Assembly (NCBI GenBank): GCA_016839515.1
Contig: JAEOUE010000209.1
Span: 9,326 to 73,325 of the forward strand
Length of the DNA stretch: 64,000 nucleotides
Reading direction: 5' to 3'
Origin: Candidatus Hodarchaeum mangrovi
Lineage (GTDB): Archaea; Asgardarchaeota; Heimdallarchaeia; Hodarchaeales; Hodarchaeaceae
In this document: positions 2,970-37,490 of the stretch, piece by piece
Layout: each line of letters opens with the position of its first letter
Position numbering within the stretch: position 1 is the stretch's first letter
Program-made: the position numbers and the translations under genes
Notes under the pieces: model-generated
Told to the model about the DNA's origin: nothing
What the model saw: only the letters and a program-made list of their open reading frames with translations
Database searches by the model: none

Positions 2970-3641
2970 TTAAGACCTCAATCCTTCTTCAATTTGTTTT
3001 CGCATTTCTTCCAATTTTTTCTTATCAGCTTCTTTGGTTGCAGAACTTTGAGTGCCTGTAGAGGAACTAATTGGAGAAGACACTGCTGGTTCTTTTTTTT
3101 CCTTAATAAATGATTCAGAAGCAATTTCAGCTTCTAATTCAGCCATTTGTTGAGAAATACGGTCTTCAGCTTCTACATCCATCCCAATTTCGGTAATAGA
3201 GGTATCTGTAAGTGCTTCATCCATATCTGAAACCATTTCGATTGAATCCTCTAATGCCATCATAACTTCCTCTGTTCGTTCTGGAGAAGCTGCAGCGATA
3301 TTAGCATCTATGGATGTTTGAGCATCAGATAGGGTCTGAGTAAGGGTTACATTATCTGCTGAAATATCTAGTGTATCTATCGTTCGTTGAAGATTTGAAA
3401 TTTTATTATAGCTGCTTGTTACTTGTGTTAAATATAATTCACGTCTTTTTAACGCTTGTTGAGCACCTTGTTTATTACCGCCCCTAAGTAGTGTTCGTGC
3501 AAGGTCATGTTGCTCATCTGCTTGGCGCTGATAATTTTTTATCTTAACTTCCATTTGATTAATCGTTCGTTTAAGCTTTGCCTTAGTTTCGGTTGAGCTT
3601 GAAGGTTTTTTTCCAGTTAAGAATCCTTTAATTCTTTTCAA
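2970..3641 (-). CDS. ESCRT-III, Vps20/32/60 (Snf7) class (ESCRT-IIIB)
   Basis: GNKQGAQQALKRRELY Snf7 signature; charge-bipartite coiled coil; TTG start. Confidence 0.92.
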   Translation of the reverse strand: MKRIKGFLTGKKPSSSTETKAKLKRTINQMEVKIKNYQRQADEQHDLARTLLRGGNKQGAQQALKRRELYLTQVTSSYNKISNLQRTIDTLDISADNVTLTQTLSDAQTSIDANIAAASPERTEEVMMALEDSIEMVSDMDEALTDTSITEIGMDVEAEDRISQQMAELEAEIASESFIKEKKEPAVSSPISSSTGTQSSATKEADKKKLEEMRKQIEEGLRS

Positions 3642-3856
3642 AGAAGTATCATCTCTTCTAATTGTTATTATATATAAGTCCTTAAAATATATTATATAAG
3701 TTCATGTCACTTTCAGGTAGGCTTCTTATTAAGACTTCCTATAAGTACTATATAACTCCCTTCTACAGATATGGTATATCCAAATTATGATTTTCCTCTT
3801 AATGATAATAGTAAAGACCTGTGTCCAATGATAATAATTAACATTAACGTATCAGA

Positions 3857-4591
3857 TCAAATTGCAGGGAACGAAATGGTTAATCCATCAAGGGAATCGG
3901 ATTTAATTGCAATACGCTGCTTTATTAGAGAATCTAACGCATTATTAACCCTTTCTATAGTCCATGAGGTTTTTCTCAACAATTCAGATAATCCAATCTC
4001 ACCATTATATTGAGCTGCGAGTTCTAATATCACTTGGTGATCATCAGATAGTTTTGGATCCAAAAATTCAACAATTTTTATTCCAGCTAGTTTTTTAATT
4101 GCATGTATCATTCCATTTTCTTCAAGCATCTTCAGGGCAGAATTCATATCATTTATTGAGATTGTAATCCCTTTACTTTCATCATTAAGTCGTGTAAGCA
4201 ATTCAGAAACGCTTAATAATCCTCCAGTTTGAAGCCTTGTGTTTTTCCCAATTTCTATAATTCTTAGGCTTAAATAATTCAGATAATCATCTTTTCCCTT
4301 TAATTTATCTATTATCCCTGGTTTTTTCCCTACCTCATAGATTCCAAGAGCTTGTGGAAGACCTAACTCCTCTCGAATTATCATTAGACGTTGAGCCAAT
4401 TGTGGATTTTTCTTGAAATCTCCTTCATAGGTTTTTTCCAATTTTTGAAGCTCATCATGAAGCTGATGGACTTTTTGACTTAATTCTTCAAGGGATTTAA
4501 GCGCAAGTTTTGTACCTTTTCTTTTCAATTCAGCTTCTTGTGTGATTTTCTCTTCAATTCTTCGTAATCCCATTGGTTTAGCATTCCTCAT
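3857..4591 (-). CDS. vps22: ESCRT-II subunit Vps22/EAP30 homologue
   Basis: GLRRI N-terminus, DYLNYLSLRIIEIG, TGGLLSVSEL, LSDDHQVILELA, WTIERVNNALDSL. Confidence 0.92.
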   Translation of the reverse strand: MRNAKPMGLRRIEEKITQEAELKRKGTKLALKSLEELSQKVHQLHDELQKLEKTYEGDFKKNPQLAQRLMIIREELGLPQALGIYEVGKKPGIIDKLKGKDDYLNYLSLRIIEIGKNTRLQTGGLLSVSELLTRLNDESKGITISINDMNSALKMLEENGMIHAIKKLAGIKIVEFLDPKLSDDHQVILELAAQYNGEIGLSELLRKTSWTIERVNNALDSLIKQRIAIKSDSLDGLTISFPAI

Positions 4592-32988: not shown

Positions 32989-34089
32989 TTATTGCTCTAG
33001 ATAGGAATTGATGTTTATTTCGTACGGTTTATCGTTCGATTTTATTATCTCGATCTTATTCTTGTAGGTACAACAAGGTAAAGCATCAATTTCTTGAAAT
33101 AGAGATTTATCTCCAAAATAATGCATTTGAATTGGTCGAATCACGGAAACCTCAAGATTTTTCTCTAAAAAAGTTAGTGCCTTAAGATTCATTATTTCAT
33201 TCTTACAATTAAAGCATGTTGGAGATATAATTGTCATAAGGTTTTCTCTGTGCGCAATTTTTTCAGCATATTTTTCGCAAAAAAATTGACATAGTAAGCA
33301 AAGTTCAAATTCTGATTGATTTTCACTTAAGAACTTGGAAATATCTATAAGATATGGATTAGGAAAATATTCTTTCATAATTAAATGCATATAATCTATA
33401 TAATTCTCTTTATCAGTTTTGAAGAATAATGGAATGACTTCAACTCCTCGTTTCTTCATCAACCAAGCGGCAAAAAGTGAACTCGTGTTTGGTCTAATAA
33501 TTGCCAAAGATTTACCTTGAGATTTGGTAGGAATTCCATCAATTCCTATAATTCGCTTTGTATAATATAATACAAAATCACCACGAATATCCAAATAAAT
33601 TTTATAATCAGGATTAGCTAGATCTACTTTAAGGTTAGGGATGTTCGTTTTAATCAATGCTCCTAATTTAGAAGCAATTTCGAGTGAATTATATGGATGG
33701 TTACCTTCCCTATTTACACGTACTGCAAAACTCCCTTCTGCATCAATAATCTCTTTAGAAAATGTTAACCCAAAGTTTAGGAGGTCCTTTTCATTTGAAG
33801 ATCCTACAAAAGCGATACTTAAAGAAGAAATTCCGCTGATAGTTTTACTGATCGACTCCGCATATTCATTGATGTAGGAATCATCATCTAATTCCAATAT
33901 CAATCGATCTCGATATTCAAAAATCTTAAATCCTTGATTGATACTACTATATTCTTTCAGGGTCTTTTTAAGGTTTGAAATCATTCGTTTGCGCGTTCGA
34001 CGACTTTTTATCCCTAATTCTCCCCCTGGACGTATTAAAATTACTTGTTTACTCACTAGAGAAGCTAGACCATTCATAGCAAGTGTCAT
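32989..34089 (-). CDS. THUMP-domain ThiI-like protein with degenerate PP-loop
   Basis: ELGIKS, FAVRVNREG, KVDLANPD, GIP..SQGK, AAWLMKKRG; SGGxDS absent. Confidence 0.8.
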   Translation of the reverse strand: MTLAMNGLASLVSKQVILIRPGGELGIKSRRTRKRMISNLKKTLKEYSSINQGFKIFEYRDRLILELDDDSYINEYAESISKTISGISSLSIAFVGSSNEKDLLNFGLTFSKEIIDAEGSFAVRVNREGNHPYNSLEIASKLGALIKTNIPNLKVDLANPDYKIYLDIRGDFVLYYTKRIIGIDGIPTKSQGKSLAIIRPNTSSLFAAWLMKKRGVEVIPLFFKTDKENYIDYMHLIMKEYFPNPYLIDISKFLSENQSEFELCLLCQFFCEKYAEKIAHRENLMTIISPTCFNCKNEIMNLKALTFLEKNLEVSVIRPIQMHYFGDKSLFQEIDALPCCTYKNKIEIIKSNDKPYEININSYLEQ

Positions 34090-34422
34090 TCCTGAATTCT
34101 TTTCTTGATTTATAATTAAATAATTATTAGTTAATATTGGATTTAAGCGATTTTGACATCTAGTATCTTATATTCATTATTTTACTTGGTTAGCTTGTAG
34201 GGATAAATAATATTTATTTCACAAATTTAGAACAAATCTTAGTAGCTTTTGAATGTCTTGAGAAGCTTTGTGAATAGTAATCATTCAAGTCTTACTTACA
34301 AGTATTCAATATCAACCGATTTACTGTTTAAATTGAAAGTAATTGTCCGATTCACTACTGAAACTACTAATCAGGTAAATTTAAGGATGGAAGCTATAAA
34401 TTTTTAACAATAAGAGATGAAA

Positions 34423-34500
34423 ATAACGAGCGTGTCAGAGTAACTATAATAATTCATTGAAGAACTCATCCTTGTCAGGTTTCATCATAACGCCCGTTAT
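34423..34500 (-). ncRNA. Twin-guide box C/D sRNA
   Basis: 11-bp terminal stem (34423-33/34490-500); C ATGATGA; 12-nt guide AACCTGACAAGG; D' ATGA; degenerate C' ATGAATT; guide TTATAGTTACT; D CTGA; both guides complementary to conserved LSU rRNA sequences. Confidence 0.88.
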
Positions 34501-34531
34501 ACTATTACTACTAAAAAATTCATTATATCTT

Positions 34532-34948
34532 TTAGGAATCTTCTTCTTCCTCTAATTCCTTTGATGTTTGAATTATTTTTGCAACATCAAACCGCTGTTC
34601 AAATTTTCTCCAAATTGCATCATGTAATTCTTCATTAATGTTCTTTAAAACCTTCTCAACAACTTTTTTAGCTTTTTCACGATCAATAGGAAGTTCAGTG
34701 AACCCCCACATTGATGCTGGTGCTGCATCAGGATTTTTTTCAATTAGGTAAACAATTCCTTCTTGCTGTTGGAATGAAATGTATTTTGGTTGAACAAGAG
34801 GACAATCAGTTAATGTATGAACACCAGTAACTGTAAATAAATGATTGCATCTAATTTTGTTTCCACTGGAGGAGGATTTAAATGCACAATGACCTTTATC
34901 TAAATAATTCCAAGAAGTGGTTAGATTTGAATCTTTCATGGTTTTCAT
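34532..34948 (-). CDS. Mak16 / ribosomal protein eL28 family homologue
   Basis: W..L...HCAFK...C..FTVTG.H...CPL...KY...G.VYL..K......W aligns by eye with yeast Mak16 N-domain; ORF-track start at 35017 lies inside the tRNA. Confidence 0.85.
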   Translation of the reverse strand: MKTMKDSNLTTSWNYLDKGHCAFKSSSSGNKIRCNHLFTVTGVHTLTDCPLVQPKYISFQQQEGIVYLIEKNPDAAPASMWGFTELPIDREKAKKVVEKVLKNINEELHDAIWRKFEQRFDVAKIIQTSKELEEEEDS

Positions 34949-34976
34949 CTCTTTTTTCCTATATTCAAGACTAATA

Positions 34977-35078
34977 AGCCGCTGGGGGGACTTGAACCCC
35001 CGACCAACAGATCTCAAGGATATAAGAGAATATTAATATCTTACAAGTCTGTCGCTCTACCAACTAAGCCACAGCGGC
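34977..35078 (-). tRNA. tRNA-Thr(TGT) with 29-nt intron at 37/38 (35013-35041)
   Basis: GCCGCTG/CAGCGGC acceptor, ACAGA/TCTGT anticodon stem, GGGGG-TTCAAGT-CCCCC T arm; 73 nt after splicing. Confidence 0.93.
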
Positions 35079-35342
35079 AATAAATCTTATATATCTCAAC
35101 TGAAAACTTTTATAAATTTATTTCGACCTCTGAATATGTACAAAGAACCTTTTACATGATTTTAATTTGTCCTTTAGACTCAAAATAATAGAACATTGGT
35201 CTATTAGACAAAAAAGCATGTTTTGCTTCTAATATTCCCGATTTTAGATGAATTTAAATTTGTTTCATTCAATTTGATTAATTATTTATCATCCTTAAAG
35301 ATGGGAATTATTCGATTTTGATTCAATATCATTATCTATTAC

Positions 35343-35756
35343 TCAACGAAGCTCTAATATGCGTTTATTTCGGATATAAAGGGTTTTAATCTGTTTATTT
35401 CTAGCCATCTTCTTCAAACGATTATCATTAGTGGCAATAATCCCATTTTCTTTTTCAGAATTGAATAATAAAATGAAATCAACGTTTCGATGCTTGAAAG
35501 GAGATGAACGTATTATACAATACTTTTCTACAAAATCCAAGGCTAATTTTGCTTCAATTTTTGTTTTTGGATTCCCAGTTTCGTAAAGCTTCTGAATTTC
35601 TTGAAAAATTGGCTCTAATACTATTAATTGTCTTGATCTAGGAATAACTCTATCTAATTCAGATGATATATTAAAATTTGTAAACTGTCCTAATGCCATT
35701 AAGAAATTAGTATCAAGAAATATAGGAAGGAAATTTTCTCCATTTGAGGAATTTAT
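35343..35756 (-). CDS. PIN-domain protein (Fcf1/Utp24-like); probable ATA start
   Basis: IFLDTNFL first PIN motif lies upstream of the ORF-track ATG (35699); VD and IATND motifs; conserved position after aIF2-gamma. Confidence 0.85.
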   Translation of the reverse strand: MNSSNGENFLPIFLDTNFLMALGQFTNFNISSELDRVIPRSRQLIVLEPIFQEIQKLYETGNPKTKIEAKLALDFVEKYCIIRSSPFKHRNVDFILLFNSEKENGIIATNDNRLKKMARNKQIKTLYIRNKRILELR

Positions 35757-37090
35757 TAATTCATCCGTAATTCCTTGCCTCCATTAATTAATCCCCAACC
35801 GATTAATCGCCATCGTCTATCTATCATTCGACTTATGGCAATTCTTGTGCCTAAATCCGAGCAAACTGGTATACGCAGTTCGATATGTACACCTTTTTTA
35901 GATGACTTTATGACTTTCCCAACCGTTTTTGCCGTTCCTACACTTAACATTAAATTTTCATTAGGTTCTATGTTTTGAACTATGGACTGTGTCTCGCTTC
36001 CTACTACACGCTCCATTAATGTTGCATTAAATTCGAGTGTATCCCATATTGGAGGAAGCTGATCTGGATATCCTACCACTTGTCCAACCAAGGTATCACT
36101 CTTAGTTAGAGCTGGATCTAAAAGTGTTCCAAGTCCAATTAATCCTCCAGGTAGTGCTGTTTCTAATTCTCCAAATCCACTCCTTAAGCTGGTAATTTTC
36201 GTTTTAATTAATTGCCATTTGTTTCCCCTTCGATACCCAGGACGAATCTCAACCTCATCATTAACAGAAAATTTACCTTGGATTATACTTCCTCCGACAA
36301 CACCACCTTTCAATCCACTTGGAGCTTGACCAGGTTTATTTATATCAAAAGAGCGTGCTACAAGCATCTGAGGTGCTAATGATCCATCTCGCTTAGGAGT
36401 AGGAATTTTCTCTTGGATGTTTTGAATTAGTAGATCAATATTTGATTTATGGATCGCACTAATCGGAATGATTGGACTTTCTTTGGCAGAGGTATTTGAA
36501 ATAAATGTCTTAAGATCTTTATAATTTATTAGAGCATCTTTTTCAGAAACAAGTTCAATCTTGTTCTGACAGACTATTACATTTTCCATTCCAATGATGT
36601 CCATTGCAGCTAGATGTTCTCGGGTTTGAGGCATTGGAACCCTTTCATTTGCAGCAACTACAAGAAGAGCCCCATCCATGATGCTTGCTCCCGATAACAT
36701 GGTTGCCATTAGAACTTCATGGCCTGGTGCATCAACAAAAGCTACTCTTCGTAATAAAATTGTTTCTTTGCCACATACTGGACAAATCTTTGCTGTTGAA
36801 TACTTTTGCGGACTTTCACAATTTGGACATTCTCGAAATTCACACTCAGCGTAACCAAGGCGAATTGAAATTCCACGACGAATTTCTTCACTGTGAGTAT
36901 CGGGGAACTTTCCTGTTAAAGCTTGAGTCAGTGTTGATTTTCCATGATCAACATGTCCTATCATACCTATAGAAACTTCTGCTTGATTAACAACAAGTTT
37001 TTCCGAATCTTTTTCAGCTTTATCAGCACTAATGGATTCAGTTGTAGCTGTTTTCTTCTTAGCTGTTGATCGCTTTTTTCTAGCTGGCAT
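35756..37090 (-). CDS. eif2g: Translation initiation factor aIF2 gamma
   Basis: GHVDHGKS, RGISIRLGY, DAPGHE, PMPQTREH, QNKIE, WRLIG. Confidence 0.97.
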   Translation of the reverse strand: MPARKKRSTAKKKTATTESISADKAEKDSEKLVVNQAEVSIGMIGHVDHGKSTLTQALTGKFPDTHSEEIRRGISIRLGYAECEFRECPNCESPQKYSTAKICPVCGKETILLRRVAFVDAPGHEVLMATMLSGASIMDGALLVVAANERVPMPQTREHLAAMDIIGMENVIVCQNKIELVSEKDALINYKDLKTFISNTSAKESPIIPISAIHKSNIDLLIQNIQEKIPTPKRDGSLAPQMLVARSFDINKPGQAPSGLKGGVVGGSIIQGKFSVNDEVEIRPGYRRGNKWQLIKTKITSLRSGFGELETALPGGLIGLGTLLDPALTKSDTLVGQVVGYPDQLPPIWDTLEFNATLMERVVGSETQSIVQNIEPNENLMLSVGTAKTVGKVIKSSKKGVHIELRIPVCSDLGTRIAISRMIDRRWRLIGWGLINGGKELRMN

Positions 37091-37109
37091 AAGAAACCTC
37101 AAATATAAG

Positions 37110-37490
37110 TTAAAGCAACTCTTCAATAGCTTTTGCTTTACTTGTCTTTTCTTCTATTTTTAGGTTGATTTGATAGATATCTTCTGAAATCAGGCTACCA
37201 CGAACTCGTTTTCGTCTTCTTCTTCCTTTACGTTTGGGTTTATATCCAACTGCTCTATGGCCTATCAAAATTCGTTTCGGGGATCCACCTTCCACCCCCG
37301 AAGCCATTGGAAATCCAGATTGATCGGAACCTCCTGTAATTTTCAGTTTATAGCCGTCAAATCCAATTAAACTTCCATCAATTTCATCACCGATCTTTTT
37401 ACCAATTAGGTGACGAGTCATACTATCTGCATCAATTTCTTTCTTATAGCTTTGTTTGCTATCGGCTAAATTCAATTGAAAACGAACCAT
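37110..37490 (-). CDS. rps6e: 30S ribosomal protein eS6
   Basis: GKKIGDEIDG, LKITGGSD.SGFPM, RKRVRG. Confidence 0.96.
   Translation of the reverse strand: MVRFQLNLADSKQSYKKEIDADSMTRHLIGKKIGDEIDGSLIGFDGYKLKITGGSDQSGFPMASGVEGGSPKRILIGHRAVGYKPKRKGRRRRKRVRGSLISEDIYQINLKIEEKTSKAKAIEELL

Follow-up and report, generated by a model that had tools for sequence, protein, structure and literature searches.

What does the short stretch of DNA behind a ribosomal protein gene of an Asgard archaeon encode, and does it bear on the origin of eukaryotic guide RNAs? We investigated this question for positions 34423–34500 of a 64,000-nt segment of Candidatus Hodarchaeum mangrovi (GenBank assembly GCA_016839515.1, contig JAEOUE010000209.1, positions 9,326–73,325; the whole segment is referred to as the window, and coordinates are those of the window). 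A preliminary description, made from the letters of the window, had proposed a box C/D guide RNA for two methylations of large subunit ribosomal RNA (LSU rRNA) that are also present in yeast. Our analyses suggest, with a probability of about 0.88, that the locus is the gene for an archaeal box C/D small RNA (sRNA) which would guide 2′-O-methylation of 23S rRNA at two sites. This reading is directly supported by anatomy, conservation, complementarity, guide–target covariation and the protein genes of the machinery, from which we infer expression of the sRNA, its assembly into a ribonucleoprotein (RNP) and both methylations.

The sRNA is a double guide of 78 nt from stem to stem, encoded on the minus strand and read from 34500 to 34423; the coordinates originally proposed are correct, whereas the strand had to be amended, the plus strand carrying the rRNA-sense strings. 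From 5′ to 3′, it comprises the stem strand AUAACGGGCGU (34490–34500), a single U, box C (AUGAUGA, 34482–34488), a 12-nt spacer that constitutes the D′ guide (AACCUGACAAGG, 34470–34481), box D′ (AUGA, a CUGA variant, 34466–34469), an 8-nt linker (GUUCUUCA, 34458–34465), box C′ (AUGAAUU, degenerate, 34451–34457), a second 12-nt spacer that constitutes the D guide (AUUAUAGUUACU, 34439–34450), box D (CUGA, 34435–34438), a single C, the stem strand ACGCUCGUUAU (34423–34433) and a short U run (UUUU, 34420–34423, its first U shared with the stem). Boxes C and D are closed by pairing of the two stem strands over 11 bp (ATAACGGGCGT / ACGCTCGTTAT), including one G-U pair, and the double-guide architecture with an 11-bp closing stem was thus described correctly. 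Both spacers measure 12 nt when C′ is read as AUGAAUU. Boxes C and D match the kink-turn pairing scheme of this RNA class; the internal boxes D′ and C′ are degenerate, keep their G-A dinucleotides and are compatible by sequence with a kink-loop, for which protein binding is predicted. The U run, which follows the stem as a T run in many, not all, homologues, is a possible archaeal terminator judged from its letters.

Folding of the sRNA gave a minimum free energy z-score of −2.74, equalled by 2 of 200 shuffled sequences. Furthermore, a loose C/D pattern that also required ≥4 bp of terminal stem matched once on both strands of the 64-kb window, and this single match is the sRNA locus.

Target sites were read on the 23S rRNA of G005, G016 and G001, three genomes of the same genus that hold the region and whose sequences from helix 69 to helix 71 (H69–H71) are identical. 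In the loop of helix 69, AGUAACUAUAA is complementary to the D guide at 11/11 contiguous positions, and the fifth guide nucleotide upstream of box D lies opposite the equivalent of Escherichia coli A1913. The D′ guide pairs with CCUUGUCAGGU at 11 of 12 positions, the sole unpaired nucleotide adjoining box C, and its fifth nucleotide upstream of D′ lies opposite the G1945 equivalent. This numbering is based on E. coli K-12 rrlH (2904 nt), in which GTAACTATAAC starts at 1910 and CCTTGTCGGG at 1941, so that the fifth pair from box D falls on A1913 and that from D′ on G1945. Both of these pairs (N+5) are Watson-Crick, A-U at A1913 and G-C at G1945, and with 11 bp on the same-genus 23S rRNA each guide exceeds the 9 bp of complementarity expected of this RNA class. 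When the guides were shuffled, a contiguous 11-bp run including N+5 was found on the same-genus 23S rRNA in 1 of 5000 (D) and 5 of 5000 (D′) cases. These results bear out the assignment of the D guide to helix 69 and A1913, as well as the expected pairing with a host-type 23S rRNA, here with 11-bp matches on three same-genus genomes in place of the organism's own. For the D′ guide, the G1945 equivalent at D′+5 stands, but the assumed target ending in ...GGUU does not: the genus 23S rRNA reads CCUUGUCAGGUA (11/12 Watson-Crick), with an A following where U had been assumed.

The two target sites and the two guides also correspond in their arrangement. On the plus strand (34439–34481), the rRNA-sense strings start 31 nt apart, versus 32 nt in the same-genus 23S rRNA (L008:1011–1054), without a change in their order. 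The sRNA therefore amounts to an antisense copy of H69–H71, co-linear with it, in which D′ and C′ take the place of the middle part. Its co-linearity could stem from the geometry of the RNP or mean that the sRNA arose from an inverted piece of rRNA; similarity of the middle part of the sRNA to rRNA was not seen by eye. Two further observations concern the 23S genes themselves. G001 holds two of them, a compact one of 2936 nt (L001, G001:C57:307-3242) with GGTAACTATGACC in H69, and a genus-type one in pieces (L195, G001:C38); L001, which lacks the targets, was set aside as a likely foreign contig, since G001:C38 has the genus-type 23S. In family f4, ~850–880 nt, probably an intron, are inserted into the 23S gene directly 3′ of the helix 69 loop and a few nucleotides past the D-guide target (L004 G028:C99 ~3540–4420; G037:C98 100523–101372).

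We then compared sRNAs and 23S rRNAs from single genomes. An A-to-G change at rRNA position 1918 in f4 is met by a U-to-C change in the guide, and at positions 1948–1950 the rRNA sequences AGG (genus), UAG (genus g43) and AGA (f4) face the guides CCU, CUA and UCU, which are their Watson-Crick complements; UGG (g52, G188) faces the guide CUA with one G-U pair. The N+5 pair is Watson-Crick in all five same-genome sRNA/23S pairs examined. Covariation is also seen between the boxes: nucleotide 6 of box C and nucleotide 1 of box D form G-C in 35, A-U in 22 and U-A in 1 of the 61 sequences parsed from 64 loci, and are non-Watson-Crick in 3. The GA dinucleotides of D′ and C′, which serve for sheared pairs, are kept in 61/61 parsed sequences, GGA variants counted. 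Judged from these alignments, covariation of guide with target and within the kink-turn is the signature expected of a working C/D RNA.

The sRNA is present as one copy in each of the 22 genus genomes (its own and 21 others), and a covariance model search returned the locus as the sole match in its own genome (E = 2.2e-17). Half of the alignment columns (42/84, 20 genus sequences) are invariant; these comprise box C, 10 of the 12 D′ spacer nucleotides, the UGA of both D′ and C′, the 11-nt D guide and box D. Variable columns are found in the stems, the linker and the nucleotide next to D′, and behind the constant AUGA of C′ its last three nucleotides differ among genus members. The linker reads GC...GC in most genus members, where 2 bp are possible. 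In the wider family, D′ occurs as AUGA, UUGA, UGAA or CUGA. The terminal stem differs in sequence and is kept: per-sequence folding of the flanks gave a stem in 20/20 homologues, 6–14 bp long with −8.6 to −16.6 kcal/mol, at most 9 of 200 shuffles being as good for any one sequence. Furthermore, the gene order eL28–sRNA–ThiI/THUMP on the same strand is found in all 22 genus loci, while the flanking proteins are merely 36–66% identical among them. The eL28 stop codon lies 31 nt ahead of the sRNA stem in the window and ~15–35 nt ahead in the other genus loci, a gap that leaves little space for a separate promoter and points to co-transcription followed by processing.

We investigated the occurrence of the sRNA beyond the genus with strict patterns, BLAST and covariance models. 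A strict double-guide pattern, scanned over one genome per prokaryotic species with non-Asgard archaea included, matched only 19 genus records and one other Asgard metagenome-assembled genome (MAG; two contigs), and BLAST with the copy from this MAG found the sRNA in 5/5 genomes of its genus and in one genome of another genus. The strict pattern TGATGAN{25,45}TYATAGTTACYCTGA, applied to 83 genomes of the window's class, matched the genus only (22/83), plus one match of the reversed-pattern control; the strict pattern TGATGANNNNNGACAAGNNTGA matched 27 of 400 phylum genomes, versus 3 matches of its reversed control. Outside the genus and G168, the TGATGANNNNNGACAAGNNTGA matches fell in 6 places of coding-looking sequence that lack a C′ box, a D guide and a D box, and these were rejected. 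Since the boxes are degenerate, most of the true homologues escape strict patterns, whose negatives are therefore weak.

The covariance model R1, built from 26 sequences (alignment A2), revealed a far wider distribution. Within the window's class, 39/83 genomes matched at E ≤ 0.1, namely 22/22 in family f1 (the organism's own genome included), 2/2 in f2 and 8/12 in f4, with weak matches only in f3 and f5. The Loki-type class gave matches in 83/151 genomes at E ≤ 0.01, with a single match in every genome but two, of which one contains the same RNA twice, and the class of G306 in 11/14 at E ≤ 0.01. In an even sample of the phylum, 43/151 genomes and 10/27 Asgard families (f1, f8, f10, f14, f20, f24, f25, f26, f28 and f29) matched at E ≤ 0.001; at this threshold there was none in f3 (0/13), f5 (0/4), f31 (0/26), f12 (0/19), f13, f27, f9 and f11. 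The class holding f31 gave matches in 2/87 genomes, neither homologous on inspection, and the class of f12 gave 0/19. The covariance search among Asgard genomes that had been suggested thus finds homologues in many families beyond the genus.

Guides to both sites were present in all R1 matches that were inspected (8 from f2 and f4, 14 from the Loki-type class, 6 from the class of G306 and 6 from the phylum sample), and all of them, together with the copies found by BLAST, share the part order C, G1945-region guide, D′, C′, H69-loop guide, D. Five further weak matches from the Loki-type class include three or four with both guides, mostly in the same order. G152 (f19), another of these five, and G044 (f3) keep the H69 D guide with an unrelated D′ guide. 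The weak matches in G062, G047, G048, G072, G073, G408 and G371 (f3, f5, f31) were rejected as homologues on inspection, and that in G064 is ambiguous. Individual branches show features of their own. The f4 homologues L148–L154 are ~95 nt long, with a ~30-nt hairpin inserted between D′ and C′ and strongly degenerate boxes (C AAUGAAGA, D CCGA, D′ UGAA). In the Loki-type genus g53, the sRNA lies ~3.1 kb upstream of the 16S 5′ end on the same strand (L185 G199:C15:1-6000; L186 G221:C36:1-6000); many contigs end at that rRNA, and the context differs from the eL28 linkage in Hodarchaeales. At the WORB4 loci, eL28 and ThiI were not found near the homologue.

The organism's own genome encodes the proteins such an RNA would work with, namely fibrillarin (E = 3e-77), an adjacent Nop5 (E = 1e-66) and L7Ae (E = 1e-26). 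The sRNA would probably be made as the 3′ tail of the eL28 messenger RNA (mRNA) and then trimmed. Boxes C and D, closed by the 11-bp stem, would fold into a kink-turn, and D′ with C′ into a second, weaker kink-loop; by analogy with the known family, L7Ae would bind both, and a Nop5 dimer would bring two copies of fibrillarin. The D guide would pair with the helix 69 loop (bridge B2a) so that the fifth pair counted from box D involves the A1913 equivalent, and the D′ guide with the 5′ strand of helix 71, where the fifth pair counted from D′ would involve the G1945 equivalent, a G at the beginning of that helix. With the targets 32 nt apart and co-linear with the antisense RNA, the RNP may, speculatively, also keep the intersubunit-bridge region open during assembly.

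Several observations nevertheless weigh against a two-site guide. LSU rRNA is absent from the own assembly (4.0 Mb in 348 contigs, 91% complete, with the window on contig C153). Among sequencing runs containing the stretch, no RNA runs were listed, the DNA runs being sediment or soil metagenomes. A search of the window at Rfam gathering scores gave only two tRNAs and nothing on the sRNA; the best-scoring family for it, plant snoR24 (RF00132), reached 20.2 bits (E = 0.82) where the gathering score is 38. This family has the box positions and a central string, GUUCUUCAAUGAA, in common with the sRNA; its guides differ, and we treat the match as generic C/D resemblance. Counting terminal-stem pairs in fixed columns of alignment A1 gave 59.6% paired, no better than shuffled alignments (reached by 87/500), a failure which we attribute to register shifts of the stem between sequences and which per-sequence folding handles. 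The D′ guide of G037 has one C-A mismatch to its own rRNA. In G016:C15 (L044/L145) and G001:C11 (L045/L146), the C–D′ spacer is shorter by 2 nt (...GACAAGTGAAAGC), and by its sequence this would mean either that D′ is GUGA with N+5 shifted to the C1947 equivalent or that the D′ half is impaired. Finally, nucleotide 6 of C′ and nucleotide 1 of D′ are unable to pair in most genus members, and the degeneracy of these boxes may render the D′ half less active.

The last of these points favor a narrower reading, in which the RNA is a real box C/D RNA that methylates through the D guide (H69, A1913) only, the D′ half acting as a second anchor or chaperone contact or being inactive. The non-canonical D′ (AUGA) and C′ (AUGAAUU), the shortened spacers and the unrelated D′ guides of G044 and G152 beside a retained H69 guide would all fit, and Dennis et al. 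(PMC4644070) describe double guides of which one half base-pairs with its target but does not direct methylation. However, the D′ guide is as invariant within the genus as the D guide, it follows the rRNA changes at 1948–1950 in other families, its N+5 pair is Watson-Crick in each of the five same-genome comparisons, and the D′ and C′ GA dinucleotides are retained in every parsed sequence, which makes a D-only RNA improbable in our judgment. Constant linkage to eL28 in the genus, the short distance from its stop codon and a long stem followed by a U run, much like a terminator, raise another explanation: a conserved structured element of the eL28 mRNA 3′ end (a terminator or regulatory hairpin), with rRNA complementarity used for purposes such as feedback sensing. 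We consider this very unlikely, since the Loki-type homologue is not beside eL28 (it precedes the 16S gene on the two contigs examined), neither eL28 nor ThiI accompanies the WORB4 homologues, and a terminator leaves the kink-turn covariation of the boxes and the 12-nt spacers unexplained. Chance resemblance in AT-rich intergenic DNA would draw on the frequency of short UGA motifs in such a genome, but is already contradicted by the conservation data: the sRNA is retained throughout the genus although neighboring proteins have diverged strongly, the architecture occurs once in the window, shuffled guides rarely match, and the covariance model finds the RNA in distant Asgard families. We regard chance as having next to no probability. 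These comparisons point instead to a genuine archaeal methylation guide of the ordinary type, belonging to an old Asgard-wide family.

The sRNA is part of a minus-strand gene row (32989–37126) of eIF2-gamma, a PIN_9 protein, a tRNA, eL28, the sRNA and ThiI/THUMP, and the order of its protein genes from eIF2-gamma to ThiI/THUMP is kept in most of the 22 genus loci (proteins only compared). The eL28 gene (34532–35017, minus strand; Pfam PF01778, E = 7.8e-11) has an uncertain start codon. Rfam places a tRNA at 34977–35078 (minus strand, 62.6 bits), which with 102 nt is long enough to contain an intron, whereas ARAGORN finds no tRNA in 34000–36000; this tRNA covers the initial 41 nt of the longest reading frame for eL28 (TTG at 35017), and the true eL28 start is therefore probably further downstream. 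In some loci, a second helix of 10–11 bp and differing sequence pairs the region 15–30 nt upstream with the downstream flank (L013, L017, L018, L023 and L027–L029 in the genus, L155 and L163 in the Loki-type class), and it is a possible processing stem. An outer helix beat shuffles in only 8/28 loci, however, and at the window's own locus it was matched by 32/100 shuffles; it is not claimed here.

Does this family bear on eukaryotic small nucleolar RNAs (snoRNAs)? In yeast 25S rRNA, Am2256 is guided by snR63 and Gm2288 by snR75, as given in PMC5199042, and yeast Ψ2258 corresponds to E. coli 1915 (PMC2794176); the resulting numbering offset of 343 equates Am2256 with A1913 and Gm2288 with G1945. 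The Asgard guides and the yeast snoRNAs therefore address the same nucleotides, and the correspondence put forward in the preliminary description is upheld. The spacing from the A to the G site is 32 nt in E. coli and Asgard 23S rRNA and, by printed site numbers, in yeast, human, plants, Ostreococcus and Dictyostelium. Both sites are tabulated for six eukaryotes (Arabidopsis, tomato, tobacco, human, yeast and Ostreococcus), the same table holding no entry for Pyrococcus abyssi (PMC11542601), and both are found in Dictyostelium (PMC8817022). In Neurospora, Am2218 is addressed through a D guide (CD33) and Gm2250 through a D′ guide (CD7), the same D and D′ usage as in the Asgard sRNA; this agreement has a chance expectation of 1 in 4 and is weak support.

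Shared targets do not by themselves establish descent: the guide sequence is imposed by the rRNA, and guide likeness therefore says nothing on ancestry. Similarity to eukaryotic families beyond the boxes and the target-imposed guide was not seen in Rfam, where cmscan of 34100–34800 at E ≤ 10 returned only snoR24, snosnR71, snoZ105 and snoR442, with no U46, U15, snR63 or snR75 by name (Rfam accessions for these were not verified). Given the wide Asgard spread, the family was likely present in the archaeal ancestor of eukaryotes; Hodarchaeales have been placed as sister to eukaryotes in one analysis and this is disputed in another, as far as the accessible parts of these reports go. That snR63 and snR75 descend as genes from the Asgard double guide is plausible but, in our judgment, less likely than not. 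The wide Asgard spread, the presence of both sites in all tabulated eukaryotes and the D/D′ agreement with Neurospora speak for it. Against it, as far as sequence searches reach, Rfam holds no match, several Asgard families lack a detectable copy, and convergence on hotspot sites is considered common (PMC4644070). Non-Asgard archaea, moreover, were covered by the strict pattern only. Tentatively, one could imagine that the double guide is among the oldest surviving C/D genes. It would then date back to the last ancestor shared by the Asgard classes sampled, and hence to the archaeal forebear of eukaryotes, and the Am2256 and Gm2288 methylations would have continued uninterrupted since; after duplication, copies that each lost one guide would have become U46/snR63 (from the D half) and U15/snR75 (from the D′ half).

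In archaea, box C/D guides are considered to be replaced rapidly. In the present family, by contrast, both targets, which lie in the B2a bridge region of the large subunit, have stayed the same in several Asgard classes. Fungi, plants and animals, as well as a green alga and an amoeba, are methylated at these very sites, which raises the testable question of whether some of the eukaryotic snoRNAs and of the rRNA methylation pattern are older than eukaryotes. A published description of Asgard C/D sRNAs was not found in the open-access literature searched, judged largely by titles and the beginnings of abstracts; a review (PMC7994747) contains neither 'Asgard' nor 'Lokiarchae', and a preprint reporting the isolation of Hodarchaeales strains contains none of 'snoRNA', 'sRNA' or 'fibrillarin'. 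Alignment A2 and model R1 offer a curated seed for annotating C/D sRNAs in Asgard genomes, RNAs for which a published catalogue was not found either.

The eukaryotic RNAs that act on these sites resemble the Asgard sRNA in target and differ from it in organization. Yeast snR63 and human U46 (SNORD46) address the same rRNA nucleotide as the Asgard D guide, and Neurospora CD33 likewise uses a D-box guide; these RNAs are encoded by separate genes (intron-encoded in Neurospora), and their likeness to the Asgard sRNA is limited to the target-imposed part. Similarly, yeast snR75 and plant U15 address the nucleotide of the Asgard D′ guide, and Neurospora CD7 also uses D′, but snR75/U15 is a separate snoRNA, unlike the Asgard double guide. 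Arabidopsis AtU15 is listed for the Gm2288 equivalent together with the Am2281 equivalent, so that eukaryotes combine the sites in another way than the Asgard sRNA does. The tie of a guide RNA to the eL28 gene would be analogous to eukaryotic snoRNAs hosted in ribosomal protein genes.

The closest counterparts are the archaeal double guides of Sulfolobus, Pyrococcus, Pyrobaculum and others (PMC4644070, PMC6009581), with which the Asgard sRNA shares the C, D′, C′, D order, 12-nt spacers, two target sites separated by less than 100 nt in the same rRNA, the H68–H71 hotspot and the genes for L7Ae, Nop5 and fibrillarin; both the anatomy and the homologues across Asgard families thus agree with the Asgard double guide first proposed. 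According to Dennis et al. 2015 (PMC4644070), helices 68, 69 and 71 are archaeal methylation hotspots, and double guides with sites less than 100 nt apart are common (262/489). The Asgard sRNA differs from the catalogued guides in its host, a sediment Asgard archaeon rather than a hyperthermophile, in its unusually long terminal stem (11 bp, with the 6–14 bp range noted above) and in its degenerate internal boxes. Furthermore, archaeal groups do not in general share precise methylation sites, according to Lui et al. 2018 (PMC6009581), whereas the Asgard family is conserved across classes.

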